Positions 2,895-62,736 are shown, numbered from the stretch's first letter. The stretch is 64,000 nt of DNA from an uncultured Planctomycetales bacterium (GCA_964474085.1 CAYYRJ010000012.1:7701-71700), one strand, 5' to 3'. Made by a program: numbers and translations. The notes: a model not told the origin generated them from the sequence alone.

Positions 2895-2959
2895 TGTAAT
2901 CTCCTGTAGAATTAACTAATTATATTGAGCCGTTATAAATTTTCAACTATTAAGAAATC

Positions 2960-6097: not shown

Positions 6098-6099
6098 AT

Positions 6100-6792
6100 T
6101 TAATCTCTATCCTCATTAAAACGGTAACCCAAGCCGCGAATCGTTTCTAATGCTTCGCCGACTTTGCCCAGTTTCTGACGCAACCGCTTAATGTGTGTAT
6201 CGACCGTGCGTGTTGTGACATCCGCTTCGATGTTCCAAACAGCGCTCAAAAGCTCTTCGCGCGACTGCACCCGCCCACGGCGCTCGAGCAAGATCACCAA
6301 AAGTTTAAATTCCATGGGTGTGAGAATAACCTCCCTGGCCTTCACCGTGACACGATGCCGAGGAATATCAATTCCTAAGTCCCCGCTTCGCAAATTTTCT
6401 TTAGGCGACTGTTTGATTTGTCCACGGCGCAGAATCGTTTTAGCGCGCAAAATAAGTTCGCGTGGACTAAACGGTTTAACAACATAATCTTCGGCGCCAA
6501 GTTCAAAGCCGACCACGCGGTCGACTTCTTCCCCGCGTGCAGTCAACATCATAATAGGTATAGTTGACAAACGGCTATCATCTTTCAAACGCCGGCACGT
6601 TTCAAACCCGTCCATTTTAGGAAGCATAATATCGAGAATAATCAAATCGACTTTTTGAACGGATAAAAATTCAAAAGCTTCTTCTCCAGTAATCGTCACA
6701 ACGACACGAAAACCGGCCTTCTCAAAATTATATTTGACGAGCTTGGCAATATTGGCGTCGTCTTCAACGATAAGAATGCTCTCTTGAGGCAT
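6100..6792 (-). CDS. phoB: OmpR-family response regulator PhoB
   Basis: Receiver domain (VEDDANIAKL...D...LTAR) plus a winged-helix C-terminus (LTPMEFKLL..VDTHIKRLRQKL). Confidence 0.85.
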   Translation of the reverse strand: MPQESILIVEDDANIAKLVKYNFEKAGFRVVVTITGEEAFEFLSVQKVDLIILDIMLPKMDGFETCRRLKDDSRLSTIPIMMLTARGEEVDRVVGFELGAEDYVVKPFSPRELILRAKTILRRGQIKQSPKENLRSGDLGIDIPRHRVTVKAREVILTPMEFKLLVILLERRGRVQSREELLSAVWNIEADVTTRTVDTHIKRLRQKLGKVGEALETIRGLGYRFNEDRD

Positions 6793-6798
6793 AAAATT

Positions 6799-7575
6799 TC
6801 AATTAAGAATTTCTTGGAAAAAATCTTTCATGGCAATCCACGAACGCTGATCCGCGCGTTGATTGTAGGCAGCACCTTTACTATTATCATTTCCTGCCGC
6901 AGGATTCGTAAACGCATGGACCGCGCCACTGTACTTGATCAACTGCCAATCCACATGGCCGTCATTCATTTCTTTTTCAAAACCCTGCACCTCTTCTAAC
7001 GGAACATACGGATCATCTGCCCCGTGGAGAGCCAAAATCTTGGCTTTGATATTCTTTGCATCCTTTGGCGTTGGAGTACTCAAGCCGCCATGAAAACTCA
7101 CCACACCCTTAATTGGGGCTCCACTGCGCGCTAACTCCAAAGCCGTCGTGCCGCCAAAACAAAATCCCATGACCGCGATTTTGTTTGCATCGACCGTATC
7201 TTCCTTTTTGATTGCTTCATACCCGGCAAAAATACGTCGGCGCAACAAATCCCGATCGCCTTTATAAATTCCGACAAGTTGACTGGCCTGATCCGTATTT
7301 TCAGGACGGACATCTTTTCCATAAATATCGACCGCCATTGCAATATAACCTAATTTCGCTAACTCCTCTGCTTTCTGATTTCCAAAAGACCCAAAGCCCA
7401 TCCAATCATGCACAACAAGAATCCCGGGGCGTTTATCGGCAATGGCATCATCATAGGCAACATATCCCTGGAGAGATGTTTCCCCTTCCTTATATTCAAT
7501 CATTTTTGTCACAATGGCTGCGTGGGCCTGGATCGGCACACACAAAAACAGAATTAACAATGCAAATTTTTTCAT
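6799..7575 (-). CDS. Dienelactone hydrolase family protein (secreted)
   Basis: HDWMGF...GFCFGG nucleophile elbow and a C-terminal His; start placed at MKKFALL, which has an AAGGAG RBS 10 nt upstream. Confidence 0.8.
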   Translation of the reverse strand: MKKFALLILFLCVPIQAHAAIVTKMIEYKEGETSLQGYVAYDDAIADKRPGILVVHDWMGFGSFGNQKAEELAKLGYIAMAVDIYGKDVRPENTDQASQLVGIYKGDRDLLRRRIFAGYEAIKKEDTVDANKIAVMGFCFGGTTALELARSGAPIKGVVSFHGGLSTPTPKDAKNIKAKILALHGADDPYVPLEEVQGFEKEMNDGHVDWQLIKYSGAVHAFTNPAAGNDNSKGAAYNQRADQRSWIAMKDFFQEILN

Positions 7576-7676
7576 AACCAACCACTCCTTAAAGGGAATT
7601 AGACACACAAAAAGAAACGAACATAATAAATTCAATTATGCGATGGTATTAAATGAATCGTCCTTCGGGCTTAAAA

Positions 7677-7901
7677 CTATTTCACTTGCCCAGCGATAAT
7701 TTTTTCAGCAGCAAGCCAATCATCCACGTCATTGCCATGGGCCCCACCGCGCTTTAAATAAAGATCATAAGCTTTTTCGGCGATGCGCTGATTGATGTTG
7801 CCCTGTTCGACGAAACTCGAAATACTTTTCTTTAAGAAAGTTTCCTTTTTCGTCGCGCTGGACTTTGGCGCTGTTTTCTTAACTGGTTTAACGTTTGCCA
7901 T
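7677..7901 (-). CDS. DUF2934 family small protein
   Basis: 74 aa with the C-terminal DDWLAAEK motif typical of DUF2934. Confidence 0.55.
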   Translation of the reverse strand: MANVKPVKKTAPKSSATKKETFLKKSISSFVEQGNINQRIAEKAYDLYLKRGGAHGNDVDDWLAAEKIIAGQVK

Positions 7902-7987
7902 TTGCCGCTCCTTTTTGTTGCTTTGATGACCACTGAAAAACTATTTCTATAATACTAAAGTAAAATTTCCAAATCCACAGATGTATT

Positions 7988-8911
7988 TTACAAATTCCCA
8001 ACTAACTTAAGTATTGAGAGACGCTCTTGAATGTACTCAAAAATTTTCCCAGGGATATTGACCTTAGAGCATTCTTCCATCCCGCGAAAACCCGGGGAAG
8101 AATTCGCTTCACAAATTTTAAATCCTTCGTCGGAAAATAACAGGTCCACGCCCGCTATTTCTAAGCCCAAGGCTTGCGCCGTTTTAATGCCGAGGTTTTC
8201 TATGTCCGGTGTTAATGGATACGCTTGGACACTGGCGCCCTGCGAATAATTGGCCTTAAACGATCCGATTTGGGCTTTTCGCATCATGCATCCGACCACC
8301 TGCCCGCCAATGACAAAAACACGCACATCGCGCCCCATGCTTTGAGCGACAAACTCCTGAATAACAAAGTTTGCATTCCCCTGACTGGTCGCGATCATTG
8401 CAATCAAGTCTTCGAAACGGTTACGATTTTCACACAAAAAAACACCACGGCCCTGCGAGCCAGCCAGGGTTTTGACGACAAGCGGAAAACCGATTTCGCG
8501 CTCAACCAAATCGACATTAAGCGGATATTTCGCTAGCATCGACTTGACGGTCGGCAAACCGCACGATGCTAAGACTTGCATCGAATGCATTTTATCGCGC
8601 GCTAAGGCCACACTTGCTGCAGAATTAGGCAGATAAACGCCAGCATTTTCCATTTGCCGCATGAGCGCTAAAGCAAAATACGTCGTTGCCGACCCCATAC
8701 GATTAAGAAGAAAATCCACAGGCCCAACCGGATTACCCGAAAGCAAAAAACGCTGTTGACCATTGCCATCGACAATAATATCAATTTCATGGGGAGCCAC
8801 GACACGTAGCTGAATATTTTTTTCTTTAGCTTGATCAAGAAAACGCTGCACTCCATGAGAATATGAGCGCAGAGCATGTTGCGGGAATCTATTGAGGATC
8901 CACCCTTGCAT
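7988..8911 (-). CDS. RimK-family ATP-grasp ligase (alpha-L-glutamate ligase-like)
   Basis: 307 aa with an ATP-grasp fold pattern (GFPLVVKTLAGSQGRGV...EANSSPGF). Confidence 0.7.
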   Translation of the reverse strand: MQGWILNRFPQHALRSYSHGVQRFLDQAKEKNIQLRVVAPHEIDIIVDGNGQQRFLLSGNPVGPVDFLLNRMGSATTYFALALMRQMENAGVYLPNSAASVALARDKMHSMQVLASCGLPTVKSMLAKYPLNVDLVEREIGFPLVVKTLAGSQGRGVFLCENRNRFEDLIAMIATSQGNANFVIQEFVAQSMGRDVRVFVIGGQVVGCMMRKAQIGSFKANYSQGASVQAYPLTPDIENLGIKTAQALGLEIAGVDLLFSDEGFKICEANSSPGFRGMEECSKVNIPGKIFEYIQERLSILKLVGNL

Positions 8912-43946: not shown

Positions 43947-44675
43947 TTACAACGTTTCTTTAAACCAATTCTTGATCAACCCAACCGTTTCAACCTTGTG
44001 CGTGCGGATCAAATACTCGGCGTGCGGACCGCTTTTGACAATCGCTAAATGTTTGGGAGCTTTTGTTTTTTTGTATAAACTTTCCGAATGCCACGGCTTG
44101 ATGAGCCAATCTTCTGCGCCGTGAATATAGAGAACAGGGCACTTGATCTTTTCAACCAAATCAATCGGCTTATGTTTCTTTTGCCAAAACGGTCCCGGAC
44201 GCACGCCTTTGCCGATCTTGCCCTCGCCAATCAAGCTATAAACAATATCTGTCTCAAAACTCAATTCCCAAAACCGGTATTCTATTTTTTCAAACTCTGT
44301 GGGACTGCTCACAGCGATAAGACTGTCCATCAAATCCCCTCTGGAGGCGACAATCAAACTCGTCGCAGCACCAAGAGAAAACCCAACAACGCCGACTTTT
44401 GAGTAACTCGCTTTTGCGTATTCTAAAACAACCTCCAGATCCAAATACTCCTTGCTCGTCCAATAAAAAAGGCCGCCGCTTTTGCCGTGCCCGCGAAAAT
44501 CCATGATGATGACGTCATAACGATCATCGAGCGCATGTCCCAATTCTTTTAACAAGAGCGCATCTTTGCTGTTAAAAAACCCGTGCGCGATAATCACAAC
44601 TTTGTCATGGCCGTGACGATAATGGTCAAAGGCAATTTTTTGCCCGTCGGAGGTCTTTATCGTATGCATTTTCAT
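43947..44675 (-). CDS. Alpha/beta hydrolase (lysophospholipase/S33-like)
   Basis: HG oxyanion motif (IIAHGFF), GFSLG nucleophile elbow, and C-terminal D/H (IHGAEDW...GPHA). Confidence 0.8.
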   Translation of the reverse strand: MKMHTIKTSDGQKIAFDHYRHGHDKVVIIAHGFFNSKDALLLKELGHALDDRYDVIIMDFRGHGKSGGLFYWTSKEYLDLEVVLEYAKASYSKVGVVGFSLGAATSLIVASRGDLMDSLIAVSSPTEFEKIEYRFWELSFETDIVYSLIGEGKIGKGVRPGPFWQKKHKPIDLVEKIKCPVLYIHGAEDWLIKPWHSESLYKKTKAPKHLAIVKSGPHAEYLIRTHKVETVGLIKNWFKETL

Positions 44676-47600
44676 TAAATCTCCATTGCCTGACGCTTGA
44701 TCGCGCCCAAGTCAAGTTTGCCGCTTCCTAAAAGAGGAATCGCGTCTATTTTGCGAAACGCATCAGCGTCGGGAATCCATAAATTTGGCAAACCGATTTT
44801 CTTTAAGCCGTCGAGCACACTGGCAATATCAAGGTCAATGGTATGCAAAACCACAAGCCTCTCCCCGCGTTTTTCATCCGGCACAGCTGCGACGACACAA
44901 ACCTGCTCGGACGAAGAAAGCACAGCATGAATCGCTTCTTCGATCTTTATATGCGGCACCATTTCCCCGCCGATTTTACTAAAACGGCTTAAACGATCGG
45001 TAATGGTAATAAAACCGTCTTGACCGATTCTGGCAATATCACCCGTCGTATACCAACCATCGTGGATAACCTCTGCTGTTTTTTGCGGCTGGTTCAAATA
45101 ACCTTTCATCACATTAGGCCCGCGCACAAGCAAAAGGCCATCTTTTTCCGCAGCTAAAGTCTCACCGGTATTCTGATCGACGACCTTAACAGCAATCCCG
45201 GGCAGCGGCAAGCCAATCGTGCCCTGTTGTTGGGCTTTTTGCAAATCACCGGTTTTGTCATAATCTGGCAAGTTAATCGAAACAACCGGGGATAATTCGG
45301 TGCATCCATAACCTTCCATAGGAACAACGCCAAATTTGTCGTTAAATTCCTTAGCCAAACTTTCTTTTAACTTCTCCGCGCCTACGGTCACCATACGCAG
45401 ACTTTGAAATTGCTCTTTCTCACAGCGACGGATATATGCGCTTAAAAATGTCGGTGTCGCCATCAGAATACTGGTCTGATAGTCGCCGACCAATTTCCCG
45501 ACGGTTTTGGCATCCAAAGGATTGAAATGATACACCGCCCCAATCCCGCTTAACAGAGGAAACCACAAGGTACCTGTAAAACCAAACGAATGAAAAAACG
45601 GCAAAATCCCCAGCATCACGTCTTTATTTTGAATATTAAAAACTTGATACAACCCCTCCAAGTTAGAGGTGATGTTCCCGTGAGTCAGCATAACCCCCTT
45701 GGGCTCGCCCGTCGAACCGCTGGTAAACATAACGGTCGCAAGCTTTTCGTGCGCACGATAATCTTTGGGCCCAAAGATAAACCAATGCGAAAGTCCCGCA
45801 GGCCAAGCAAAGGCCATGAAAAAGGCTTTGAGCTTTTCAACGTTCGTCAAAGAAGCAATAATGTCCTCGATAAAAAGCACATCGCACGGCAAGCTAATCC
45901 CGGTTTTTTCCAAAAAGCTGCGCGAGCTTATCACATACTGCATCGCGCATTGCTTAATTGTCGACGCTAAGCTGTCCTTAGAGGCCGTGTAATTGATATT
46001 AACCGGCACTTTATTAAGGATTGAAATCGCAATATTGACCAGCGCGCCGGCGACGGATGGAGGAAGAAGAACGCCAATGGTTTTTTCTTGAAAAAGTTTT
46101 CCGTTGATCTTTCGACTGATCGCAACCGCAGAAACAAGCGTTAAAGCATAATTGAGTTTTTTGCCGCTGGAATCCGCAATGCAAAACTTCGACGGATGTT
46201 TACGTGCCTCACACCAAAACGCCTCAGGCAAGGTAACTTTGTCGGCTAGGCGATATTTAAACGCATCGGCGCCTAATTCCATCACCGCGGATCGAACGGC
46301 AAAAGCACTGCTGTTGGCAGGCATTGGTTTTCCGAAAGAAACGGTCACAGGATAGGGAATAATTTTAGGCCATTTTTTTAAATACTTATCCCCCTCGTGG
46401 CTAAAAATACTTCCCCAAATCCGGTCAATGTTAACAGGAACAACCGGACAATCGAGCCCTTTTACAATATGCTCAAGCCCGGCGTTAAACTTAAGAAGAT
46501 TCCCCGTACGGGTCAATTGCCCCTCGGGAAAAATGCAAACCAATTCCCCGTTTTTTAGCGCCTCCTTGGCAATATTAAGAGAACGAATAATTTCTTTAGG
46601 GTTATCTTTGCGGTCAATAGGAATCACACGTCCAACTTTAAACAGCGGACGCAAAATGCTCGTCGTATAAACTTCGCGGCTCATGATAAAACGAATCGGC
46701 CGCGCAATACTAACAACGAGCAAAACCGCATCAACGTACGAAACATGATTACATGCAAGTAGGGCTCCCCCCTTTTGCGGGACATTGTGTTTATCAATAG
46801 CCTTAATCCGATAAAGAGTATGCGTCAAAATCCAAACAATCAGTCGTATCATCGGATATGGCAAAATCCGGCACACATAAACTGCGCCAACAATCGTCGC
46901 TGCACCAATAAACAAAAACGTTTGTGCAGGGTTGACTTTCAAAACTTCCCCCAAAAAATAGATCGCAAATGAAGCAACAAGAATAGCCGCAAACGAAAAG
47001 AAATTGTTCGTTGAAATTATTCGCCCACGCTCGTCGGGCTTGCTCTCAAACTGAATAACCGTATTAAGAGGAACAATATAAAATCCACTGGAAACGCCGA
47101 GCAAAAACAAAGTCCAAAGCACACTCATGTAAGAATGATAATTAAATCCTAACTGCATCGAAAAAACACTCAAGCCCAAAGCTCCCAGTGGCACAAGTCC
47201 AAGCTCGATTTTTTGGTCGGAAAATTTTCCGGCCATAAGCCCGCCGATTCCAATCCCCAACGAAATACTGACGAGCAGCAAGCTCGCCAAAAGATGATCA
47301 ACCCCCATCAAGTTGCGAGCATAAAGTAAAATATTCGGCTGAAACAAACCGCCTAAGAAAGCAAAATATACCAAACCTAAAATAGACAAAAACACCGAGC
47401 GATTCGTGCGGACAAAGCGCGTGTTTTCGATAACTTCCCTTACAAAATTCCATTGAGCTTTACGTTGTGTTCCAGCCGGCGGGACTTTAGAAATAAAAAG
47501 GCTCGTGACAAATCCAAGAACAGCAACCCCGATAAAAACAAAAGACGTTTTATACGGCGCCTGGCCAAAAATCTGCAGAAGATATCCGCCGCTGGCCTGT

Positions 47601-48064
47601 CCTAAAATAATAGCGGCGTAAGTAAACATTTGTAATTGACCGTTGCCCTCGGAGAGGTCGTCTTCGCTTAAAATTTCCGGCAAAATCGCGTATTTGGAAG
47701 GACTAAAAAAAGCGCTGTGCAGCCCCATCAAGAACAAAACACTCAGCATCCCCCAAATACTCAAATGCAAAAGCGCAAACAAGCCAGCGATCATGACGAT
47801 CACTTCTGAAATTTTAGCGAGGATGAGAATATTTCTTTTGCTGAATTTGTCCGCCAAATACCCCGCGAACGTTGAGAACAGAAGAAACGGCAAGATAAAA
47901 ATACCGCTGGCTAAGGCCACAAACAATGTGCCGCCGTTTTGTTTTGTAAAGTAGTCAATGGCCAAAAACGTAACAATGACCTTAAAGGCATTGTCATTAA
48001 ACGCTTCCAAAAACTGTGTGGCCTGCAGCGCACGAAAGCCACGAGAGTGGAGAGTATTTTTCAA
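44675..48064 (-). CDS. Tri-domain fusion: MFS lysophospholipid transporter (LplT-like) + PlsC acyltransferase + acyl-ACP synthetase (Aas-like)
   Basis: N-terminal 12-TM MFS region; HxxxxD acyltransferase motif (NHVSYVDAVLL); AMP-binding motifs (TSGSTGEPKGV...YGCTE...GWYTTGD). Confidence 0.85.
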   Translation of the reverse strand: MKNTLHSRGFRALQATQFLEAFNDNAFKVIVTFLAIDYFTKQNGGTLFVALASGIFILPFLLFSTFAGYLADKFSKRNILILAKISEVIVMIAGLFALLHLSIWGMLSVLFLMGLHSAFFSPSKYAILPEILSEDDLSEGNGQLQMFTYAAIILGQASGGYLLQIFGQAPYKTSFVFIGVAVLGFVTSLFISKVPPAGTQRKAQWNFVREVIENTRFVRTNRSVFLSILGLVYFAFLGGLFQPNILLYARNLMGVDHLLASLLLVSISLGIGIGGLMAGKFSDQKIELGLVPLGALGLSVFSMQLGFNYHSYMSVLWTLFLLGVSSGFYIVPLNTVIQFESKPDERGRIISTNNFFSFAAILVASFAIYFLGEVLKVNPAQTFLFIGAATIVGAVYVCRILPYPMIRLIVWILTHTLYRIKAIDKHNVPQKGGALLACNHVSYVDAVLLVVSIARPIRFIMSREVYTTSILRPLFKVGRVIPIDRKDNPKEIIRSLNIAKEALKNGELVCIFPEGQLTRTGNLLKFNAGLEHIVKGLDCPVVPVNIDRIWGSIFSHEGDKYLKKWPKIIPYPVTVSFGKPMPANSSAFAVRSAVMELGADAFKYRLADKVTLPEAFWCEARKHPSKFCIADSSGKKLNYALTLVSAVAISRKINGKLFQEKTIGVLLPPSVAGALVNIAISILNKVPVNINYTASKDSLASTIKQCAMQYVISSRSFLEKTGISLPCDVLFIEDIIASLTNVEKLKAFFMAFAWPAGLSHWFIFGPKDYRAHEKLATVMFTSGSTGEPKGVMLTHGNITSNLEGLYQVFNIQNKDVMLGILPFFHSFGFTGTLWFPLLSGIGAVYHFNPLDAKTVGKLVGDYQTSILMATPTFLSAYIRRCEKEQFQSLRMVTVGAEKLKESLAKEFNDKFGVVPMEGYGCTELSPVVSINLPDYDKTGDLQKAQQQGTIGLPLPGIAVKVVDQNTGETLAAEKDGLLLVRGPNVMKGYLNQPQKTAEVIHDGWYTTGDIARIGQDGFITITDRLSRFSKIGGEMVPHIKIEEAIHAVLSSSEQVCVVAAVPDEKRGERLVVLHTIDLDIASVLDGLKKIGLPNLWIPDADAFRKIDAIPLLGSGKLDLGAIKRQAMEI

Positions 48065-52930: not shown

Positions 52931-54388
52931 TCAAAATTGAAAATAGATAAACGGAATCGAGACATCAATCCCGAAATTCATAATAAATAAAACCATGAAA
53001 GTATATACTGCCATACGTATCGCCGGATGATTACGTGAAAGAACAACACGGACATCTTCTTTTTGCCCGAGAATATTAACCCAGACAAGAAAAACAATCA
53101 GCCCCGTTGCAAAAATAAATTCACTGACTGTTAACCCAATATCGTTCTGCCCTTGCATCCCTGGATTTTGAACTTTCCCCCACCCTGCAAAAATTTGTGT
53201 AACAATAAAAACTGCATCATTGAGATTATTCGCACGGAAAAAAATCCATGCAAAACAAACCAAAGAAAATGTGATGAGAGTCTGAAAAATTTTATGCAGC
53301 GCCGGCATTTGCGCAAATCCTAACGCAAGAGCGCATCGCTCCCGAAAAGTTTTCGTCGCTTTGGAAAATAAATAATACAATCCATGCAAAGCGCCCCAGA
53401 CAACAAAAGTCCAGTTAGCACCATGCCAAAGTCCGCTGACTAAAAACGTGATAAAGATATTAAAACGCCAACGCCAAAGATTTGCATGATTTCCTCCCAG
53501 CGGAATATAAAGATAATCACGAAACCACGTCGACAATGAAATATGCCACCGATGCCAAAAATCACCAATCGACCTTGCCAAATACGGACGCTCAAAATTT
53601 TTCATTAATTTGAAACCCAAAACCTCTGCAGCACCTATCGCGATATCGGAATATCCCGAAAAATCACAATAAATTTGAAAAGCAAAAAATATCGTCGCAA
53701 TGATAAGACTTGCGGGACCAAAATCTGACGGATTTGCATACACACGGTTAACAAGAATCGCCAAACGATCGGCAATCACAACCTTCTGAAACATCCCCCA
53801 AACCATGAGTTTTAAACCATGACTGACCCGCAATGTGTCAAACTCATACTTTTGAAAAAATTGCGGCAAAAGATGGCAAGCGCGCTCAATAGGGCCTGCG
53901 ACTAACTGCGGGAAAAACATCACATACAAAGCATAAATCCCCAAGTGCCGCTGGGCCTTTTGCTTGCCACGATAAACGTCCACGACATAACCCAAACTTT
54001 GAAAAGTGTGAAACGATAATCCCAAAGGCAAGATCAGCGAAATATTTTTGACCGGATAATTCCAACCTAACCGGGAGGCAATCCAAGATCCGGAAGCATT
54101 AAAAAAGTCAAAATATTTAAAAACAAAAAGTACAGCGCACGTCGAGAAAATGCTGAGCCATAAAACAACTTTACGCCGCTTACCATTCAAATTTTCGATA
54201 AAAATCGCCGCCGTGTAATCAATGAGAATAAGTAGAGCCAAAATCAGGATATAGACAGGAATAAATGCCATATAAAAATAGCAACTGGCAAGCAAAAGCC
54301 ATAGCCAGCGCCATTTGAAGGGCATCATAAAATAAACAGACACCACAACAGGAAAGAATAATAAAAACAGATATGAATTAAACGTCAT
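52931..54388 (-). CDS. MBOAT-family membrane-bound O-acyltransferase (AlgI/DltB-like)
   Basis: 485-aa polytopic protein with the conserved His region ([23 protein letters not shown]). Confidence 0.85.
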   Translation of the reverse strand: [485 protein letters not shown]

Positions 54389-54407: not shown

Positions 54408-54989
54408 TTATTTCTTAATCGTCCATTCAAACGAACCGCGGGCGTTGTCAAAGACCTCAATGGGCGTGCCGACAAGCGCGTCCTGCTGTAAACGCTTGGC
54501 ATATAATTTTTGGACCTCTTCAACAGAACTGCCATTTTTTTGGGCGACAGACTGGTAAATAATCATGCGATCACGATTTTCTTCGTTCACCAATTTTGTT
54601 GCCGAAGCATCCGCTTTATCCGACAAACGAATCACAAGCAAACCGGACTTATTCTCGCCAATAATCCCTTTTTCTGCCAGCGAGATTAGCTGATCACGCC
54701 GATCTTTACGCCGCAACGCCGCCGCCTGGACTTCAGAGCTTAAATCTTCAGCCGCATAAGCCTGTGAAACAAAAATATTTAAAAAACTCTGCGGCCCCTG
54801 CGTCTTGGGCTTAGGCGAAGAACCGGTGACCATATTTTCGATATCATCAATATCATTTTTAATATGCTGATAAATATCCAACCGCATCGAAATGTCTACC
54901 TTGATCGGATCCTTCGGGGCCTGAACGCTGACACGCGCACAACCTAAAACAACCACCAATCCCAACAGCGCTATCATTATTTTTTTCAT
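54408..54989 (-). CDS. YdbL-like (DUF1318) periplasmic protein
   Basis: Signal peptide; C-terminal YdbL-type motif (ENRDRMIIYQSVAQKNGSSVEEVQKLYAKRL). Confidence 0.65.
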   Translation of the reverse strand: MKKIMIALLGLVVVLGCARVSVQAPKDPIKVDISMRLDIYQHIKNDIDDIENMVTGSSPKPKTQGPQSFLNIFVSQAYAAEDLSSEVQAAALRRKDRRDQLISLAEKGIIGENKSGLLVIRLSDKADASATKLVNEENRDRMIIYQSVAQKNGSSVEEVQKLYAKRLQQDALVGTPIEVFDNARGSFEWTIKK

Positions 54990-55007: not shown

Positions 55008-56033
55008 TTAATGGTGCAAAACAATATTAAAATCCCGCTTTCCCTGTTTTCCGTCTAAATGAATATCCGCCAATAAATCACCGTCGTGCAAAGATAAGTT
55101 TACACTGCCGGTATTATAGTAATAATCCTGTAAACTTTCCACGACCGTATCGAGAGATGCACGATAGGCGATGTGATCCAAAAAACTTACGTCTTTAATC
55201 ATCAGCCGCCCGCCGAAAGCATCGGCAAAAAGATCCCCGCCTAAAACTTTTACTACAGCTCCCTCTCCTTGCAAAACAATGTTTCCGCCAAGTTTTCCGG
55301 TTATCGTAAATTTATTGGCCAACTCAAAATCTTCAACAAAGCGGCTAAGATCTAATCCTTTTAATTGCAACTTTGCCTGATATTGCGGCAAAACATCCGG
55401 TTTCACAACAATACTGCCTCGAATTTGCCCACCCAAAAATTTGGCCGATAAATCGTCAAAAAGCAAATCCTGATTTTCGAAACGCACCAAACTTTGGGCC
55501 TGCGTTACACTCGCTTTCCCATAAGTCATTTTATCAACCGTAAAATTACCGCGCTCATTGCCTCGAACCGCCCACAAAAGGGCATTTTCCAAATGAAGTG
55601 TTTGATACTCAAACGAACTAATATTCAAATAAAGCGTATATATTTTTTGTTCGAAAAAATCCACATTAAATGAAAACAACCCCGCGAGCTTTACGTTTTT
55701 GTCGGTTATTTTGACATCCGCGTCTATGCACTCAACCTGCGGCAAAAAAACATTCCTCGATAAACCCGACGAGATATTGCTCTTTAACCGCAAACGCATG
55801 GTGACTTTCTTCAACTTTATAGAAAACACGCCGTTTTTTTGAACGGCAACATCCAAAAAACAAACCTCATTAAATCGAGGAAATCCTATACTCTGAATAC
55901 TTATCGTGTCCGCAGCTAAATATTTTTTTACCACACGTTCTGCCAAGATACGCACGACGGGCTTAGCGGCCAAAATAATCCCAGCCAGCAAAAAACCCCC
56001 AATGACAAGATAATACAGACGTCGTTTGTTCAT
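55008..56033 (-). CDS. YdbH/AsmA-family-like membrane-anchored protein (short form)
   Basis: N-terminal TM anchor, repetitive beta-rich body, and a C-terminus resembling YdbH; sits upstream of the ydbL-like gene as in the ydbH-ynbE-ydbL arrangement. Confidence 0.5.
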   Translation of the reverse strand: MNKRRLYYLVIGGFLLAGIILAAKPVVRILAERVVKKYLAADTISIQSIGFPRFNEVCFLDVAVQKNGVFSIKLKKVTMRLRLKSNISSGLSRNVFLPQVECIDADVKITDKNVKLAGLFSFNVDFFEQKIYTLYLNISSFEYQTLHLENALLWAVRGNERGNFTVDKMTYGKASVTQAQSLVRFENQDLLFDDLSAKFLGGQIRGSIVVKPDVLPQYQAKLQLKGLDLSRFVEDFELANKFTITGKLGGNIVLQGEGAVVKVLGGDLFADAFGGRLMIKDVSFLDHIAYRASLDTVVESLQDYYYNTGSVNLSLHDGDLLADIHLDGKQGKRDFNIVLHH

Positions 56034-56077: not shown

Positions 56078-57358
56078 TTAATGTTTAAAAAACTTCAAGA
56101 TAGGATTGGAAGAAGGCGGATTGATGCCAGGGTAACACTGCTTCAAATATTTCTGACTTGCCGTGGGAACAGTCGACCAAATTTTAGGATCTTGACAAAG
56201 AAATTGCTGAACGATTTTTGAGTCAATTTTAAGCCCACCGTTAATCATTTCCATCGACGCAGGTTCAGAAAAGAAAAAAGATTTAAGGCAATTCGAAAAA
56301 TTTTGTTCGGCTGAGAGAAGGTCTAAATGAAGCGGCAAAGCTGGATTGCCGCGCGCGCCAGGATAACTTTTTGCCGAACCCATAGCTTTAAACATAAGAT
56401 ATTTGTACAACGTCTCATGCTTAGGATGCACACCAATGATAAGATCCGTTACGCCTGCAACATACCGGGCATATTCATGCATAATTCTAAAAAGACGAAA
56501 AAGACGGGCCTGCTTATCAAGATTTGTCAGGGAAAACAATTTTTTCTTTTTATCTGCAGGAACGACCGCCAACAAACTAACTTCGGCAAGGACACGGCCA
56601 CTGCCGCGCAAATGATCCAGTTCGCGCGAAAACAAACTATCCATCGGTAAACCGCAGGGCGAGTCAACAACAACAGAAATTGTTCCGATTAAATTCCCAT
56701 TTTCTTTTAAGGAAAAAGTCCGCGATTGAGGCAAAAATGAATAATAATGATAATGCATCTTAGATTCGTTTGGTGTGCAATAGCGACGAGCGACGTAACC
56801 ATCATAAATAATACGATAGCACTCCTTAAGTTCCTCAAGCGATTGAACCGGAGCGGCAATAAGATTTTTGGTTAACTCCAAACCAATTTTGCAAAGCTTA
56901 TTAGCAATCAGGTAAACGAGTTTTTCTTTATGCGCAACATTGCGCATTGTCTTAAAGGCAACGCCGCACTCAACTGTTGTCGGCGCAGGCAAACGAGCCG
57001 AAAGCGGCTCAACCCAAACAACAACCCCTTTAATATCAATAGGCACAGGCGCATCCGGTAATTTCATCCGCAAGCTGATCTCTGTCCCAGGAGTAACGCC
57101 AGGCGGCAAGGCAAGCCGAATTCCAGTCGCTGAGTGATCAACACTTCTGCCAAGCAGCCACTTTGACCAACGATTTTTAACTCGATACCAAACCGGCACA
57201 TTAATCTCAACACGAGTCGATTGACGTCTTTCCTCAACAACAGCCTGCGAAAAACCGCCGCGGACAGTTTCGACATTGTCCTCTAGGACACCAACGCCAT
57301 AAGACCTCTGGGGGGAAAAAGAATTCAGGATTTTTTCGAAAATCTTCATTTTTATCAT
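56078..57358 (-). CDS. PilZ domain fused to a GNAT-fold N-acyl amino acid synthase-like domain (OlsB/FeeM/PEP-CTERM-associated NAS family), paralog 1
   Basis: PilZ motifs RRQSTR and DHSATG at the N-terminus; C-terminal YRIIYDGY...IGTISVVVDSPCGLPMD...AEVSLLAV pattern of the Acetyltransf_5 family. Confidence 0.7.
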   Translation of the reverse strand: MIKMKIFEKILNSFSPQRSYGVGVLEDNVETVRGGFSQAVVEERRQSTRVEINVPVWYRVKNRWSKWLLGRSVDHSATGIRLALPPGVTPGTEISLRMKLPDAPVPIDIKGVVVWVEPLSARLPAPTTVECGVAFKTMRNVAHKEKLVYLIANKLCKIGLELTKNLIAAPVQSLEELKECYRIIYDGYVARRYCTPNESKMHYHYYSFLPQSRTFSLKENGNLIGTISVVVDSPCGLPMDSLFSRELDHLRGSGRVLAEVSLLAVVPADKKKKLFSLTNLDKQARLFRLFRIMHEYARYVAGVTDLIIGVHPKHETLYKYLMFKAMGSAKSYPGARGNPALPLHLDLLSAEQNFSNCLKSFFFSEPASMEMINGGLKIDSKIVQQFLCQDPKIWSTVPTASQKYLKQCYPGINPPSSNPILKFFKH

Positions 57359-57372
57359 TGTTTTGCCTTAAT

Positions 57373-57508
57373 AAAAAATCCTATTCTTTATTTGCTTCAC
57401 TCATAAAGAATAGGACGTAAAGATCTCTCAATCTTTGGCAACTGGCTGCCCTTCGCATCGCGTGAGGGCCCTTTAGCTTTGTGTCCCATTCTTACGAATG
57501 GTTTACCT
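57373..57508 (-). promoter_or_regulatory. Candidate c-di-GMP-I (GEMM) riboswitch aptamer plus intrinsic terminator in the paralog 1 leader
   Basis: The minus-strand RNA GGUAAACCAUUCGUAAGAAUGGGACACAAAGCUAAAGGGCC... closely matches the Vc2 GEMM core GGCAAACCAUUCGAAAGAGUGGGACGCAAAGCC; it is followed by the hairpin gtcctattcttta...taaagaatagga plus U6. Confidence 0.55.
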
Positions 57509-57677
57509 TGATCCGATTAAACACTACATGTCGAGTATAGAATGTGTATCCATGCTATGCAAGAGAACAAATATAAAAATAATGGCCCATAAATCATTGA
57601 TATAAAAACACTTACGAATAAATCATAAAATTTAATCATAAGAAAAATTAAATATGTTAAATCAAATTCTTTTTAAT

Positions 57678-58931
57678 TTAAAAATCTTCTCCTTCACACG
57701 AATTTTCTAAATAGATTTGCTTAAAATACACTTTCGCTTTTTCCGGCATTTTCGGCCAAACCAGCTGATCTTCACACAAAAATTTGCGAACGACTTGACC
57801 ATTAGGGACAAAACCGCTGCGCAAAATTTCCCCCGGAATCGAGCGATCCATAAAGAAATCCCTTAAACAGCTTGTATAATTCTCATTGGCTGCATGTAAA
57901 TCCAAATGCAAAGGCAAAGCCGGATTACCGCGCGCCTCGGGATAACTTTTTGGCGAACCCAAATTTCTAAACAGCAAATATTTGTACAATGTCTCGTGTT
58001 TAGGATGAACGCCAATAACAAAATCCGTAACTCCAGCAACATAGTGAGCATATTCGTACATGATTTTAAAAAGACGAAAAAGTTTCATTTGCTTCTCAAA
58101 ATTTGTCAGCGAAAAAAGGTTTTTCTTTTTTTCAAGATGCACCATGGCCAACAAACTGACCTCAGCCAACTTGCGGCTCCCACCCCGAAGCCAATTGATC
58201 TCCCGCGAAAAAAGATTATCCATCGGCAAACCGCAGGGTGAGTCGACGATAAGCGAAATTGTCCCGAGTATCTGTTCTTTATCTTTTAAAACAAACGTGC
58301 GGGATTCGGGCAGAAATGAATAGTAGTGGTAATACATCCGGCTGGAATTAGCAGCGCAATACCCTCGAGCCGTATAACCTTCATAAACAATCCGATAACA
58401 TGCCTTTAAATCTTCAAGCGTCTGAACAGGAGCGGCTGTCAAATGTTTCGTAGCTTTGATTCCCAAATGACAAAGCTTATTGGCAATCAGATAGATTAAT
58501 TTTTCTTTATGTGTATTTTCCTGAACTCTGTTAAAAACAACACCGCATTCGATAACGCGCTTCTGCGCATAACGATGCGACGTCTGCGCAACCCAAACGA
58601 CAACCCCCTGCATATGAATCAGATGATTGACTTCAGGCAAAGATATTTTCATTTCGATCTCTGTCCCGGGTTTGACGGGTGAAAGCAACACGAACCGAAT
58701 CCCGCTGCTAGAATAGTCTCGGCTTATCGTCGATTGCCAAGGGGACATCACCCCTTTTATACGGTAGGAAACTGGCGCCCCGACAGAAAGCCGTGTGGCT
58801 TGGCGCATTTCACTAAAACGAGGGAAACCCAGCACGGCTTGGTTCGCATAATGCCCTTCGAGAACCTGTGCGCTTTCGATTGATTTACCGCCGGTAAAAA
58901 GCTGAAAAATATTGCCAAAGAAATTTACCAT
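57678..58931 (-). CDS. PilZ domain fused to a GNAT-fold N-acyl amino acid synthase-like domain, paralog 2
   Basis: PilZ motifs RQATR and DYSSSG; the C-terminal domain is about 75% identical to paralog 1. Confidence 0.7.
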   Translation of the reverse strand: MVNFFGNIFQLFTGGKSIESAQVLEGHYANQAVLGFPRFSEMRQATRLSVGAPVSYRIKGVMSPWQSTISRDYSSSGIRFVLLSPVKPGTEIEMKISLPEVNHLIHMQGVVVWVAQTSHRYAQKRVIECGVVFNRVQENTHKEKLIYLIANKLCHLGIKATKHLTAAPVQTLEDLKACYRIVYEGYTARGYCAANSSRMYYHYYSFLPESRTFVLKDKEQILGTISLIVDSPCGLPMDNLFSREINWLRGGSRKLAEVSLLAMVHLEKKKNLFSLTNFEKQMKLFRLFKIMYEYAHYVAGVTDFVIGVHPKHETLYKYLLFRNLGSPKSYPEARGNPALPLHLDLHAANENYTSCLRDFFMDRSIPGEILRSGFVPNGQVVRKFLCEDQLVWPKMPEKAKVYFKQIYLENSCEGEDF

Positions 58932-58942
58932 AGCCTGCCCTT

Positions 58943-59073
58943 AAAATAAAAAATCCTATTCTAGAGAATTCGCAAGAATAGGACAAAGGGACCTTTGGCT
59001 CGGCAACTGGCTACCCTTCGCGATCGCGTGAGGGCCCTATAGCTTTGTGTCCCATTCTTACGAATGGTTTACC
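58943..59073 (-). promoter_or_regulatory. Second copy of the candidate GEMM riboswitch plus terminator, in the paralog 2 leader
   Basis: Same aptamer core; the differences from copy 1 keep the predicted pairing (cgcgatgcg versus cgcgatcgcg); terminator gtcctattcttgcgaattctctagaataggaTTTTTT. Confidence 0.55.
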
Positions 59074-59148
59074 TTTTCGGTCAACTACGCTAAAAGTATA
59101 AAATACGAACAGGCCCTGCGCAAGGGCCTGTATGATAATAGAGAAAGC

Positions 59149-60666
59149 TTAAAATTTATAGATAAGTTCGCTGTACCAGCGACTTTTATTACGCAATAGC
59201 CCAAAGCTTCCTGAAGAATTGCCCGAAAAAATATCGGCCCCGACAGAAGCTTGCCAATTATCCGTCAAGTTGTATTTCAGCTTAGACTGATAAAGAAAAT
59301 CCGGCGCATTAAGTCCATAAATCACCAGAAATTCGGTCTGCAGTTTACGATTTAAAAAATCACGGCTCAACCGCAAAGAAAAAGAATTATTGAATTTGTC
59401 CACATTGACCATGGATTTTGCATGTTCGAAAATTATATTTTGAATAAACTGGGCATTAACGTCGATCTTATCAAAAAAAGTGTAATCTGCTCCGAGAAGA
59501 TATTCCAAATGCCCGCTGCGGGCAATACCATCCGAATCCGCAATGTCAGCGACGGGAAAAAAATCGTCCTTCGTATAAACAAAATCCCCTTTTAAAACGA
59601 TATCATGAATTTCCTTAGAAACCGTCGCCCCAAAAGTATCCAGCCTCTTATACTGCGGGTCAAACTCATAAATGCCAGCATCAAGCGTTCGGTACAAAAC
59701 CGGCGACTGCGTCCAACTATGTAAATAAAAAACGCCGGCATCAAACCCTTCCCACAAATAATTAAACCGTGTGCCCACCTTGCTATTTTCCAAACTTATT
59801 TTCGGCGCTTTCACATCGTGATACGTAAACGGCGTGCCTTGCGCAAGCGGCAGCGGGTAAGCAAACTCCGAGCCGCTGACCCCTAATTTGTTAAATTCAA
59901 TGCCCGGGAGAATAACAAACTCAGAATGAAAATTGTCCTGTGTATATTCCAAATTTGTTCCCCACTCGGGAATACGAATACTGTCAAAATCCGGCAAAAT
60001 AGATTCCCGTAAATCCTTGGCATTAACCACATCCGCGACAAAAACCCCAACAGCCTCGCCCCAAACCACCTGTTGTTTCCCAAGACGCAAATCCCACGGT
60101 CCCGTCGAATAATCAAGATAGGTATCCCGCAGCTGCATTTCAAAACGCCCGTCAGAGGTCGCACTATCCGAGTAATAATTTCCAACATCATACGCGGCAT
60201 CATAATAAGTTCGTCCGCTAATCCGATAGCGAAGCGCCGGCAAAAGTTCTCCACGGCCAGTTAAAGAGAGCTGACTTTTAACTTTTGAAAATTCCGAGGG
60301 ACTGTAAATATGGTGCGCGACTTCAAAGCGCGTGTTGCCTTGAATAACCATGGTTGGCTCAAAAGAACTTTCTTGAGGGGGATATTGCTCTTGAACATCG
60401 GACTCTTCTTGCGTTTGTTCGTCTGCTTGATCTTGGGATTGTTCTTGTGTTTGCGTCTGTTCGAAAGAACCCTGTTGTTCATAACGTTCAAGCGCCTGCT
60501 TAATCTTTAGGTCCCGCTTTTGCGCCTGACTTTCAAAATTTTCAAGCACCTGGGCAATAAACTGTTCACGCGACGGATCTTGCAAAATCTCTTCATCCGC
60601 CTGGGCGCACGCAACAGCACCGCACAACAACAAAAGCGCAAGAAAAATAACCGAGCATCGTTTCAT
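59149..60666 (-). CDS. DUF1302-family outer-membrane protein with an acidic Q/E-rich N-terminal region
   Basis: Signal peptide; GKQQVVWGEAVG hallmark; beta-barrel-like C-terminus ending YKF. Confidence 0.6.
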   Translation of the reverse strand: MKRCSVIFLALLLLCGAVACAQADEEILQDPSREQFIAQVLENFESQAQKRDLKIKQALERYEQQGSFEQTQTQEQSQDQADEQTQEESDVQEQYPPQESSFEPTMVIQGNTRFEVAHHIYSPSEFSKVKSQLSLTGRGELLPALRYRISGRTYYDAAYDVGNYYSDSATSDGRFEMQLRDTYLDYSTGPWDLRLGKQQVVWGEAVGVFVADVVNAKDLRESILPDFDSIRIPEWGTNLEYTQDNFHSEFVILPGIEFNKLGVSGSEFAYPLPLAQGTPFTYHDVKAPKISLENSKVGTRFNYLWEGFDAGVFYLHSWTQSPVLYRTLDAGIYEFDPQYKRLDTFGATVSKEIHDIVLKGDFVYTKDDFFPVADIADSDGIARSGHLEYLLGADYTFFDKIDVNAQFIQNIIFEHAKSMVNVDKFNNSFSLRLSRDFLNRKLQTEFLVIYGLNAPDFLYQSKLKYNLTDNWQASVGADIFSGNSSGSFGLLRNKSRWYSELIYKF

Positions 60667-61421
60667 TAGAAAACCATTTTCTTTAAATAGTCACGGGTAA
60701 AATACTTATCAGCAATTTTCCCGACTTCAATTTTGTCATACTCAATCACAGAATACTGGCCCTCATTGATAACATCATTTAAAACCATCCTCGAAGGGCG
60801 CATCCGACCGGCGAGCATTTTATAATTTTCATAAGAACACGTTTTTAATAATCGCCCGCTGTTTGTATAAAATTGGGCCTTCCAAGGCCAAAATTTCTTT
60901 TGCTCGACCCAGAGAACAATTTTGTCATACGTTGTCTTTTTATCTTTTGCCTTTAATTCCAAAACATAATATTTCTTTTCATTTATAGAATCTTCCTGCA
61001 AAAACTGGGCATTATAATCGGCAAAAAAATTAATCCGCGCGATATCGCCATTGGCAATGTCGCCTAAGAACCGCTCCTCAGCGGCAATCCGCAAAGGCTT
61101 GGACACCTCCGGAAAGAAAAACCAAAAATCATTGTCACGCATCAGAATCACCCGCCCGCGTTCATTGGCCGGCTGCAGCGTCCGAACGATCGTTTTTTCA
61201 CGACCCTGCATCTGCACCTGATAAAGTGCAGACTGCACAGTGCCGTTGACCTTATAGCTGCTGACTCGCGCCACCAAAGAAAAATCCTCATCGGGACAAC
61301 GAATCTGATCAACTTGTTTTAAAATTCCCGCAGGATTGATATTTGTCTCAGCAAAAACTCTCGCAGAAAAAAGAAGACCAAGGGAAAAAATAACAGCAAA
61401 GACAATATTACAGCTTTTCAT
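60666..61421 (-). CDS. LolA-like outer-membrane lipoprotein-sorting fold protein
   Basis: Signal peptide; 251-aa periplasmic protein resembling the LolA-like/DUF4292 family, which is often encoded next to FtsX-type permeases. Confidence 0.55.
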   Translation of the reverse strand: MKSCNIVFAVIFSLGLLFSARVFAETNINPAGILKQVDQIRCPDEDFSLVARVSSYKVNGTVQSALYQVQMQGREKTIVRTLQPANERGRVILMRDNDFWFFFPEVSKPLRIAAEERFLGDIANGDIARINFFADYNAQFLQEDSINEKKYYVLELKAKDKKTTYDKIVLWVEQKKFWPWKAQFYTNSGRLLKTCSYENYKMLAGRMRPSRMVLNDVINEGQYSVIEYDKIEVGKIADKYFTRDYLKKMVF

Positions 61422-61443: not shown

Positions 61444-62736
61444 CTAGCGATAACGCAAAGCTTCCGTAATGACAAGCCGCGAAGCTTTGAGCGCAGGAGT
61501 TAACGACGAAATTCCGCTGACAACGACCGTCAAAACGAACGTCGAAAAAATAACTGAAGGGATAGTCGCAGGCGTGGATAACCAATGCGATGTCCCACCC
61601 GGGGGAGGTGGCATTTCAATGCCCACAGAAGAAGCGAGACTCACCACCGCAACGCCAGCCATACACCCTAAAAATCCACCGATAATTCCCAAAACAAGAC
61701 CTTCAAAAAGAAAAAGTTTCATCACACTAGCTCGACGTGTGCCCAAAGCCATGAGTGTGCCAATTTCGCTGATGCGTTCCAAAACCGACATATTCATCGT
61801 ATTGAAAATACCCAAAATAACGACCGTGCCAATGACAATTTGCATAATCCAGTAAAACATGCCAAAAAGCGACACTGTTTTATGATAAAAATCCGCTGAA
61901 TCTTCCCAGCGAGTCAGCTCCAAATCGAGCTTTTTATCCCGAATCATGACCTGCAGCGCTTTAAAAACCTTTGTCGTGTCTTCGGTCTTATAAAGTTTAA
62001 TAACTAAGGACTGGACCGCTTGCGTGTCTAAAAGGCTCTGCGCTGTTGAAAGCGGCATACGCAAAAATATATCATCAAACTCTTTCTGCGCTGTTTGAAA
62101 AGCACCTTTGACGCTCATGTCAAAAGCATTCGTTGCCCCATGAACCGTACTGGTCAAAACGGTAATCGGGCTGTCAACAGAAGTCTTCATCGTTTCGGCA
62201 AGCCCTTTACCTAAAATCACCTGATAAACATCGTCGACAGCAAGGCCTTTGCCAAATACGGTCACCGGCAAACCGTTATTTTTGGATTTAACAAACTGCC
62301 GCAGATTTTTTGTTTCCTCCAAAAGTGCAACTCGTTCATTTTCGGGCTCAACGCCCTGGCCAATAAAAGAAATCGCATTATCGCCAGTGCTGATTAACCC
62401 CGAAAATTGTAAACGAGAAGTTACAAACTCCACCTCCCCCAGACTCTTAACTAAAGCTTTAACATCTTGCGGATGATCAATCAAATATGCATAGGGCTGA
62501 ATCTTTCCATGTTCGCTAAAACCTCGACGATAAATCTGAACATGTCCCAACTGTGAACCAATATACGACTCGCGAATTTGATGAAAAAGATCTTCAAAAA
62601 ACCCGCCAATAAAAATCAAAGCCACACAGCCAAAGGCAATGGTCGAAAGCGTAACCATCGACCGCGCCTTATGCCTAAAAATATTTCGCAACGCTAATTT
62701 TAACGTTATCATTCCTGTATGATCTTTCTGTCCCAA
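61444..62736 (-). CDS. FtsX-like ABC transporter permease (LolCE/MacB-type)
   Basis: N-terminal TM helix, large periplasmic domain, and a C-terminal three-TM FtsX domain (ISEIGTLMALGTRRASV). Confidence 0.8.
   Translation of the reverse strand: MGQKDHTGMITLKLALRNIFRHKARSMVTLSTIAFGCVALIFIGGFFEDLFHQIRESYIGSQLGHVQIYRRGFSEHGKIQPYAYLIDHPQDVKALVKSLGEVEFVTSRLQFSGLISTGDNAISFIGQGVEPENERVALLEETKNLRQFVKSKNNGLPVTVFGKGLAVDDVYQVILGKGLAETMKTSVDSPITVLTSTVHGATNAFDMSVKGAFQTAQKEFDDIFLRMPLSTAQSLLDTQAVQSLVIKLYKTEDTTKVFKALQVMIRDKKLDLELTRWEDSADFYHKTVSLFGMFYWIMQIVIGTVVILGIFNTMNMSVLERISEIGTLMALGTRRASVMKLFLFEGLVLGIIGGFLGCMAGVAVVSLASSVGIEMPPPPGGTSHWLSTPATIPSVIFSTFVLTVVVSGISSLTPALKASRLVITEALRYR

Follow-up and report, generated by a model that had tools for sequence, protein, structure and literature searches.

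Genes and proteins at the locus

A stretch of 64,000 nucleotides (the window) from an assembly labelled as an uncultured Planctomycetales bacterium (GCA_964474085.1, CAYYRJ010000012.1:7701-71700) was analysed around two adjacent genes on the minus strand, here named A and B. [quoted passage not shown] The features are listed in Table 1.

A preliminary description of the locus had proposed two adjacent minus-strand genes of about 75% identity, with canonical PilZ motifs, an acyltransferase domain of the OlsB/FeeM/PEP-CTERM-associated NAS family and a possibly ornithine-lipid-like product. Open reading frames of 426 and 417 amino acids were found as proposed, but the identity of their products is 54% by BLASTP and 51% by global alignment (68% for the nucleotide sequences). 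It comes near the proposed value in the FeeM domain only (72%, versus 45% in the PilZ domain and 25% over the last 80 residues). The PilZ motifs RxxxR and DxSxxG are present in both proteins, and the Pfam PilZ model (PF07238, cutoff 22.5 bits) matched with 50.2 bits (E 3.5e-13) in A and 44.1 bits (E 2.9e-11) in B. The FeeM part of the family assignment was likewise borne out by matches to PF21926 (cutoff 27 bits) of 134 bits (E 4.4e-39) and 129 bits (E 2.2e-37), respectively. The Pfam and NCBIfam searches gave no match at E<=0.01 to PF13444 (Acetyltransf_5, OlsB-type) or TIGR03694 (PEP-CTERM-associated NAS) for either protein. Membership of A and B in these two families was therefore rejected, and the ornithine-lipid-like product is left without specific support.

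Across 28 diverse members of the family, R45 and R49 of the RxxxR motif, S76 and G79 of the DxSxxG motif and E259 of the AEVSLLA motif (gene A numbering) are invariant. A profile search of the PDB matched the gene A protein to the FeeM structure 2G0B (E 4e-24; E259 lines up with the KLAEV Glu of FeeM) and to the PilZ domain of the cellulose synthase BcsA over residues 31-141, RxxxR included. The AlphaFold2 model of the same protein (predicted local distance difference test, pLDDT, 78.5; predicted template modelling score 0.73) displays a disordered N-terminus, a beta-barrel (50-135), a linker helix (144-162), an alpha/beta domain (166-346) and a helical bundle (347-425). Foldseek placed FeeM at the top of the matches to this model (template modelling, TM, score 0.78-0.86), followed by other GNATs, the acyl-homoserine lactone synthase LasI and the BcsA PilZ domain with c-di-GMP bound; the GNAT Rv0998 (PDB 4AVB) was also among them. 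All these data support the assignment of both proteins as PilZ and FeeM-type NAS fusions with the predicted c-di-GMP-binding and catalytic motifs intact. Most likely, the synthase would transfer a long acyl chain from acyl carrier protein to an amino acid, yielding a lipo-amino acid (surfactant or envelope lipid), and the PilZ domain, with both of its motifs intact, would bind c-di-GMP and modulate the enzyme allosterically.

The helical bundle of the gene A protein (residues 347-425, window 56081-56320) is modelled with a pLDDT of about 90 and has no Pfam match. It is common to many homologs of 270-330 amino acids which consist of the FeeM domain and the bundle only. Since these homologs have no PilZ domain, the bundle is regarded as the mark of a FeeM subfamily, and the PilZ domain as an N-terminal addition to this older enzyme. 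More distant PilZ-FeeM proteins exist as well: P0122 (585 amino acids) has two FeeM stretches, while P0067 (510 amino acids) has two PilZ stretches ahead of FeeM.

Table 1. Coordinates of the two genes, their leaders and the neighbouring genes, counted from the first letter of the window.
Feature	Position	Strand	Details
Gene A	56078..57358	(-)	426 aa; PilZ + FeeM-type NAS fusion; disordered N-terminus, PilZ 43-151, linker helix, FeeM-type NAS domain 179-346, C-terminal helical bundle 347-425; RQSTR 45-49 (RxxxR), DHSATG 74-79 (DxSxxG), AEVSLLA from 258 with E259 inside
Gene B	57678..58931	(-)	417 aa; paralog of gene A, same architecture; RQATR 43-47 (RxxxR), DYSSSG 72-77 (DxSxxG), AEVSLLA 256
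c-di-GMP-I aptamer A	57433..57516	(-)	Rfam E 1.7e-11, 59.4 bits (RF03167); P2 loop GUAA
c-di-GMP-I aptamer B	58998..59082	(-)	Rfam E 3.2e-12, 62 bits (RF03167)
Promoter-like pair, leader A	57534..57562	(-)	TTGCAT (57562..57557), 17 nt, TATACT (57539..57534)
Promoter-like pair, leader B	59095..59123	(-)	TTGCGC (59123..59118), 17 nt, TATACT (59100..59095)
Terminator A	57373..57415	(-)	5' arm UCCUAUUCUUUAU (57415..57403), 11-nt loop, 3' arm AUAAAGAAUAGGA (57391..57379), U6 (57378..57373)
Terminator B	58948..58983	(-)	UCCUAUUCU (58983..58975), 12-nt loop, AGAAUAGGA (58962..58954), U6 (58953..58948)
Proposed anti-terminator A	57396..57501	(-)	P2 hairpin + GGGAC (57501..57483) with terminator 5' arm + loop (57416..about 57396)
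Proposed anti-terminator B	58968..59065	(-)	AUUCGUAAGAAUGGGACA (59065..59048) with UGUCCUAUUCUUGCGAAU (58985..58968); 18 bp including 2 G-U
Ribosome-binding site of gene A	57369..57366	(-)	AAGG
YdbH/AsmA-like gene	55008..56033	(-)	downstream of gene A
DUF1318 gene	54408..54989	(-)	downstream of gene A
MBOAT gene	52931..54388	(-)	downstream of gene A
DUF1302 gene	59149..60666	(-)	upstream
LolA-like gene	60666..61421	(-)	upstream
FtsX/MacB-type permease gene	61444..62736	(-)	upstream

Class of the two aptamers

A scan of the window with all Rfam models returned exactly two matches above a gathering score, one ahead of each gene, and no match to c-di-GMP-II. The GEMM-I element that had been predicted for each leader was thereby recovered by covariance models, with the label c-di-GMP-I-GGC (RF03167) in place of the anticipated RF01051. 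Both scores sit at the gathering score of RF03167, which is 59 bits (35 bits for RF01051). Near-identical aptamers of the related genome L001 were reported as RF01051, with 68.8 bits for the one resembling A and 69.8 bits for the one resembling B. The Rfam table keeps one family per clan, so that the RF01051 scores of the window aptamers are hidden by clan competition; the tool appears to keep the clan match with the lower E-value.

The two models differ at one position of a junction, behind the closing pair of P2, the consensus being GACGCGAAgCc in RF03167 versus GACGCAAAgCc in RF01051. The clade of genes A and B is represented by 13 leaders, and the leader of the metagenome sequence L026 was read by eye in addition. 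All 13 read GACACAAA(G/A)C and thus have the canonical A. The unpaired G before helix P2 and the 3' UGCC are canonical as well, and AAGGUAAACC, GACACAAA and UUGCC are invariant among the 13. Because the base that tells the two models apart is the canonical one (A) and near-identical homologs score higher (69-70 bits) on RF01051, the GGC-variant identity was rejected. Judged by these bases, both leaders are concluded to contain predicted aptamers of the ordinary class-I type, the GGC label being an artefact of competition. Clan competition in Rfam can thus give canonical c-di-GMP-I aptamers the name of the GGC variant, which is a pitfall for annotation. By correspondence with G20, A47 and C92 of the Vibrio cholerae Vc2 structure, the positions predicted to contact the ligand were assigned to G 57507, A 57480 and C 57438 in aptamer A and to G 59073, A 59046 and C 59003 in aptamer B.

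The arrangement was also found in the six closest genomes (L001-L006), whose proteins are 70-91% identical to that of gene A. Five of them have the tandem pair with one c-di-GMP-I aptamer per gene, and L005 has one gene with one aptamer. Altogether, eleven aptamers lie ahead of the two genes in these genomes, seven of which were called RF01051 with 61-70 bits. In the window, the aptamers are 90% identical to each other versus 68% for the coding sequences behind them. This difference and the recurrence of the arrangement in six other genomes exclude a product of chance.

Organisation of the leaders

The order of elements is the same in all 13 leaders: a pair of hexamers, the aptamer, a short linker, a hairpin, a run of five to seven U and an AAGG-type ribosome-binding site (RBS). 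The hexamer pair, TTG(C/T)NN and TA(T/C)ACT at a distance of about 17 nt, was found 10-25 nt upstream of the aptamer ahead of every one of them and of L026. As had been claimed in the preliminary description, a hairpin with a U6 tract just before the RBS is present ahead of both genes. The window hairpins, with stems of 9-13 bp, a U6 run and conserved pairing, have the features by which intrinsic terminators are recognised. The folding energy of terminator A is -15.2 kcal/mol. Both hairpins were missed by a generic terminator scan because their loops are longer than 8 nt.

The 5' arm of the hairpin is nearly invariant across the clade (GUCCUAUUCUU). In the terminator helix, 94% of the cells are paired across the 13 leaders, with three pairs changed on both sides, and when P2 and the terminator were counted together none of 500 shuffles reached the covariation score. 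From this layout, each paralog is best explained as a transcription unit of its own, made of a putative sigma-70-like promoter, an aptamer, a terminator, an RBS and the PilZ-FeeM gene.

The hairpin that ends the upstream DUF1302 unit (59131..59109, minus strand) is rich in GC and contains the TTGCGC hexamer of leader B. Termination of the DUF1302 unit and initiation of the gene B unit would consequently overlap.

Proposed anti-terminator and predicted direction of switching

The invariant 5' arm of the terminator is complementary to the 3' strand of P2 together with GGGAC, and the terminator loop is complementary to the loop and the 5' strand of P2. Complementarity of the 5' arm and loop to P2 was found in all 13 clade leaders and in L026. 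The duplex energies range from -19 to -33 kcal/mol, versus -10 to -14 kcal/mol for shuffled sequences, in every one of the 13 leaders, with 0-4 of 300 shuffles reaching the same value. For the window leaders, they amount to -24.6 kcal/mol in A (shuffles -10.3) and -31.3 kcal/mol in B (shuffles -12.9), and none of 300 shuffles was as good in either case. The proposed anti-terminator A is mutually exclusive with both P2 and the terminator, and P2 is opened in the nascent transcript with a free energy difference of 7.5 kcal/mol. Anti-terminator B is already present in the structure of minimum free energy, and the corresponding difference is 15.2 kcal/mol. In the 11-bp core of the anti-terminator, 97.9% of the cells are paired, compared with 47-61% in slid registers. 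The differing loops of the leaders (UAUGAGUG, UGCGAAU, GGAUG and CGUGAUGG, as well as CAUGCGAAU in L026) all pair with the invariant CCAUUCGUA, the pairing being kept through alternation of A-U, G-U and G-C.

Folding of the nascent transcript was used to assess the direction of switching, because the equilibrium folds are split between the two states. In transcripts cut just before the 3' arm of the terminator, P2 is fully open in 12 of the 13 leaders, by 3-15 kcal/mol; the L4B leader forms a shifted helix on J2/3 and P3 instead. When P2 was forced, about 100% terminator was obtained in 12 of the 13. Both terminator arms lie outside of the aptamer, and no pairing was found in the leaders by which the folded aptamer or an extension of P1 could sequester one of them. 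Since the 5' arm is complementary to the aptamer and no pairing was found that would let the bound aptamer block the terminator, the geometry is that of an OFF switch, and the conserved anti-terminator points to termination being caused by c-di-GMP. During transcription of the leader, the 5' arm and loop of the terminator would invade P2 and form the long anti-terminator, leading to read-through and expression of the gene. With c-di-GMP bound, the P2/P3 junction would be locked, leaving the 5' arm free to pair with the 3' arm, so that the terminator would form and the gene would be off.

Several points weigh against this scheme. The promoter-like pairs are consensus matches only, and folding with ViennaRNA takes no account of ligand or tertiary contacts. 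For the anti-terminator, a single double-sided change was observed and its covariation score was reached by 195 of 500 shuffles, because both strands are almost invariant; what it displays is conservation and not covariation. In full-length equilibrium folds without ligand, P2 plus terminator is preferred in most leaders (seven at P>=0.97 and two at 0.69-0.75), and an OFF switch thus needs a kinetic, co-transcriptional decision. In the distant leader L022, the anti-terminator is not better than in shuffles.

Interpretation and alternatives

On balance, genes A and B are considered, with moderate confidence, to be two independent units, each of which would combine a c-di-GMP-I riboswitch turning expression off through termination with a c-di-GMP-binding PilZ-NAS enzyme producing a lipo-amino acid. 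The arrangement itself is real, well conserved and assembled from known parts. That the RNA and the protein both sense this messenger, each at its own level, is plausible, since real class-I aptamers stand ahead of proteins with intact motifs for c-di-GMP binding.

Both ON and OFF riboswitches for c-di-GMP are known. The preference of most full-length leaders for P2 plus terminator resembles the default-off state of an ON switch, in which c-di-GMP would prevent termination and a high level of it would induce the genes, in parallel with activation by way of PilZ. Such a switch is nevertheless unlikely here, as the terminator arms lie beyond the reach of any pairing found for the folded aptamer or a P1 extension, the conserved complementarity is between the 5' arm and the aptamer, and forcing P2 raises terminator formation. 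A role of the hairpin and U-run mainly in translation or RNA stability instead of termination is very improbable. It would fit the end of the U-run, located 4-8 nt ahead of the AAGG or AAGGG RBS, and the L026 start codon, which directly follows the U-run; however, the RBS remains outside of every conserved helix, and a stem with U-run, kept in 13 of 13 leaders and L026, is a textbook intrinsic terminator.

The identity of the ligand and the number of sensors have to be weighed as well. RF03167 was named for both window matches (62 and 59.4 bits at a gathering score of 59), and in the related leader L026 the unpaired G of the junction is replaced by A, both of which would suit specificity variants (c-di-GMP-I-GGC, or GEMM-Ib responding to cyclic GMP-AMP, cGAMP) with a ligand other than c-di-GMP. 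Against the canonical A in 13 leaders, the 69-70 bits of near-identical aptamers on RF01051, the canonical unpaired G and UGCC junction and an encoded PilZ domain that fits c-di-GMP, this explanation is given hardly any weight. Sensing of c-di-GMP by the RNA only is judged improbable, although PilZ domains that do not bind the messenger exist, structures of type IV fimbriae PilZ proteins are among the matches, and the model is similar to GNAT and LasI folds as well. The RxxxR and DxSxxG motifs are invariant in the 28 members and the c-di-GMP-bound BcsA PilZ domain matches residues 31-141; FeeM is by far the best match in sequence and fold, with its catalytic Glu conserved. With regard to the favoured OFF switch, we speculate that it fits a surfactant-type product made at low c-di-GMP.

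Relation to known systems

Class-I c-di-GMP riboswitches (GEMM-I, RF01051) include Vc2 of V. cholerae and Cd1 of Clostridioides difficile, the latter being an OFF switch of the terminator type. The window leaders share with this class the aptamer architecture, the junction nucleotides and a GNRA-type P2 loop, and with Cd1 a terminator-based expression platform and the predicted OFF logic. They differ from the known switches in that the proposed anti-terminator uses the whole internal P2 hairpin and not the 3' strand of P1, the host belongs to Omnitrophota, the controlled gene encodes a c-di-GMP receptor domain, and two units are arranged in tandem with promoters of their own. The V. cholerae gene tfoY is reportedly under c-di-GMP control at two levels and resembles genes A and B in that the messenger reaches one gene by way of both an RNA element and a protein. 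For tfoY this protein is a transcription factor of its own, whereas in A and B the second sensor would be a domain of the riboswitch-controlled protein itself.

FeeM, the best match of the gene A protein, is a stand-alone enzyme of 198 amino acids without sensor domain and without the C-terminal helical bundle. FeeM-type NAS fused to PilZ were described from a biofilm metagenome (Nas343 and Nas354) and shown to make N-myristoyltyrosine in E. coli; when a conserved Glu was exchanged for Ala, both phenotypes, surfactant and haemolytic, were abolished (Thies et al., 2016, PMC4897644). Regulation by c-di-GMP was proposed in that work and the two-domain organisation was termed unique (PMC4897644). 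These enzymes have the conserved Glu in an AEVS motif as in A and B, and the order of their domains is reversed (NAS 1-200, linker, PilZ 279-394). No riboswitch is mentioned in PMC4897644, and the comparison with A and B relies on the published description. The preliminary description had regarded both the fusion and its pairing with a riboswitch as undescribed. Because NAS and PilZ enzymes were published in 2016 (PMC4897644), the domain combination is not new; as for the pairing, full-text literature searches aimed at it did not turn up any c-di-GMP riboswitch reported to control a NAS gene or an enzyme with a PilZ domain. NasP, cited in PMC4897644 as a cAMP-activated acyltransferase, and the cAMP-regulated GNAT Rv0998 likewise couple a messenger-binding module to a GNAT-fold acyltransferase; their messenger is cAMP, their sensor fold is another one and sensing at the RNA level is absent.

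If the arrangement works as proposed, the locus would be a compact natural case in which one messenger is read twice, by an mRNA leader and by the encoded enzyme, for one output. Such a double-read design shapes the dynamics of a response, and for c-di-GMP no description of it was found in the literature searched. The 2016 observation would gain a physiological setting, namely c-di-GMP-controlled production of lipo-amino acids beside genes of envelope lipid transport. The locus also offers a handle on c-di-GMP signalling in Omnitrophota, of which, to our knowledge, only uncultured members are known.

Distribution of the fusion and its leaders

The family of the fusion is a small one, made up almost entirely of proteins from Omnitrophota. 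In a set of 5.8 billion proteins it is represented by 55 clusters (90% identity), and the source names in these clusters, where given, are 'hypothetical protein' or 'PilZ domain-containing protein [Candidatus Omnitrophica]'. An exhaustive HMMER search over 1.84 billion representatives yielded 85 proteins at E<=1e-30, roughly 50 of which have the full architecture by inspection. All 25 genomic loci are located either in metagenome-assembled genomes of Omnitrophota or in third-party assemblies labelled Planctomycetales, Planctomycetia, Brocadiaceae or 'uncultured bacterium'.

While PilZ is universal in the family, the riboswitch is limited to one clade and the distant L022 (about 31% identity). 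Fusion homologs of 45% identity or less (L007-L021, L027-L045) have no adjacent riboswitch at the gathering score. The single aptamer of L022 (2377-2473, 60.4 bits) is very different and is followed by a long hairpin with U-run and four tandem PilZ-FeeM paralogs; two or more branches of the family that lie far apart thus have the pairing. These paralogs (within L022:2377-10236, at about 2580-3746, 4348-5493, 5533-6795 and 6968-8170) precede a gene for a ThiF and nitroreductase protein of 659 amino acids. The first ~200 positions of the NCBIfam model PRK14852 (989 amino acids, 'hypothetical protein') match the FeeM domain in the products of A and B, and PRK14852 could be a FeeM-ThiF-nitroreductase fusion.

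The L026 leader (L026:1230-1509) has kept the promoter, P2 and the design of terminator and anti-terminator. Its aptamer carries an insertion of roughly 110 nt in P3, scores 35.3 bits on RF01051 and reads UUUAAGUAAACC versus AAAAGGUAAACC elsewhere, the unpaired ligand-contacting G being replaced by A or missing. A change from G to A at that junction position is the mark of cGAMP-selective GEMM-Ib riboswitches. The change in L026 could reflect an altered specificity or decay.

Gene neighbourhood

The gap between gene A and the YdbH-like gene measures 45 nt and no terminator was called in it; the YdbH-like, DUF1318 (the family of E. coli YdbL) and MBOAT genes probably share a transcript with gene A. 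In L001, L003, L004, L006 and L026, gene A is likewise followed by the YdbH-like and DUF1318 genes, and in L001, L003 and L004 by the MBOAT gene too. Upstream, the DUF1302, LolA-like and FtsX/MacB-type genes are all syntenic in L002 and L004; in L001 and L003, whose sequences break off there, DUF1302 is the only one of the three that is seen. Overall, L001-L004 and L026 have kept the order of the neighbourhood, and L006 has kept part of it. Some of it also surrounds riboswitch-less homologs, L008 being near DUF1302, LolA-like and FtsX genes and L007 near DUF1302 and LolA-like genes.

The lipid and envelope theme of the neighbourhood supports a lipid product, be it a secreted surfactant or an envelope lipid, between which it does not distinguish. 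An extended and more tentative proposal, to which we give somewhat less than even weight, is a circuit of two tiers, in which the OFF riboswitch would stop transcription, PilZ would act on the existing enzyme, and the product would pass to the syntenic lipid-transport proteins, namely the LolA-like, DUF1302 and MacB-type as well as the YdbH and DUF1318 ones. If this holds and PilZ activates, the circuit would be an incoherent feed-forward loop, with lipo-amino acids made in a pulse or band-pass fashion; in the case of inhibition by PilZ, it would be a coherent double brake, fast plus slow. In either case, c-di-GMP would be linked to the remodelling of outer-envelope lipids or surfactants in uncultured Omnitrophota.

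Further downstream, a GDSL lipase gene and a gene for an MFS-PlsC-AMP-binding protein of 1129 amino acids (window 44675-48064, minus strand) were found. In the latter protein, a lysophospholipid transporter appears to be joined to an acyltransferase/acyl-ACP synthetase, in an LplT/Aas-like manner.

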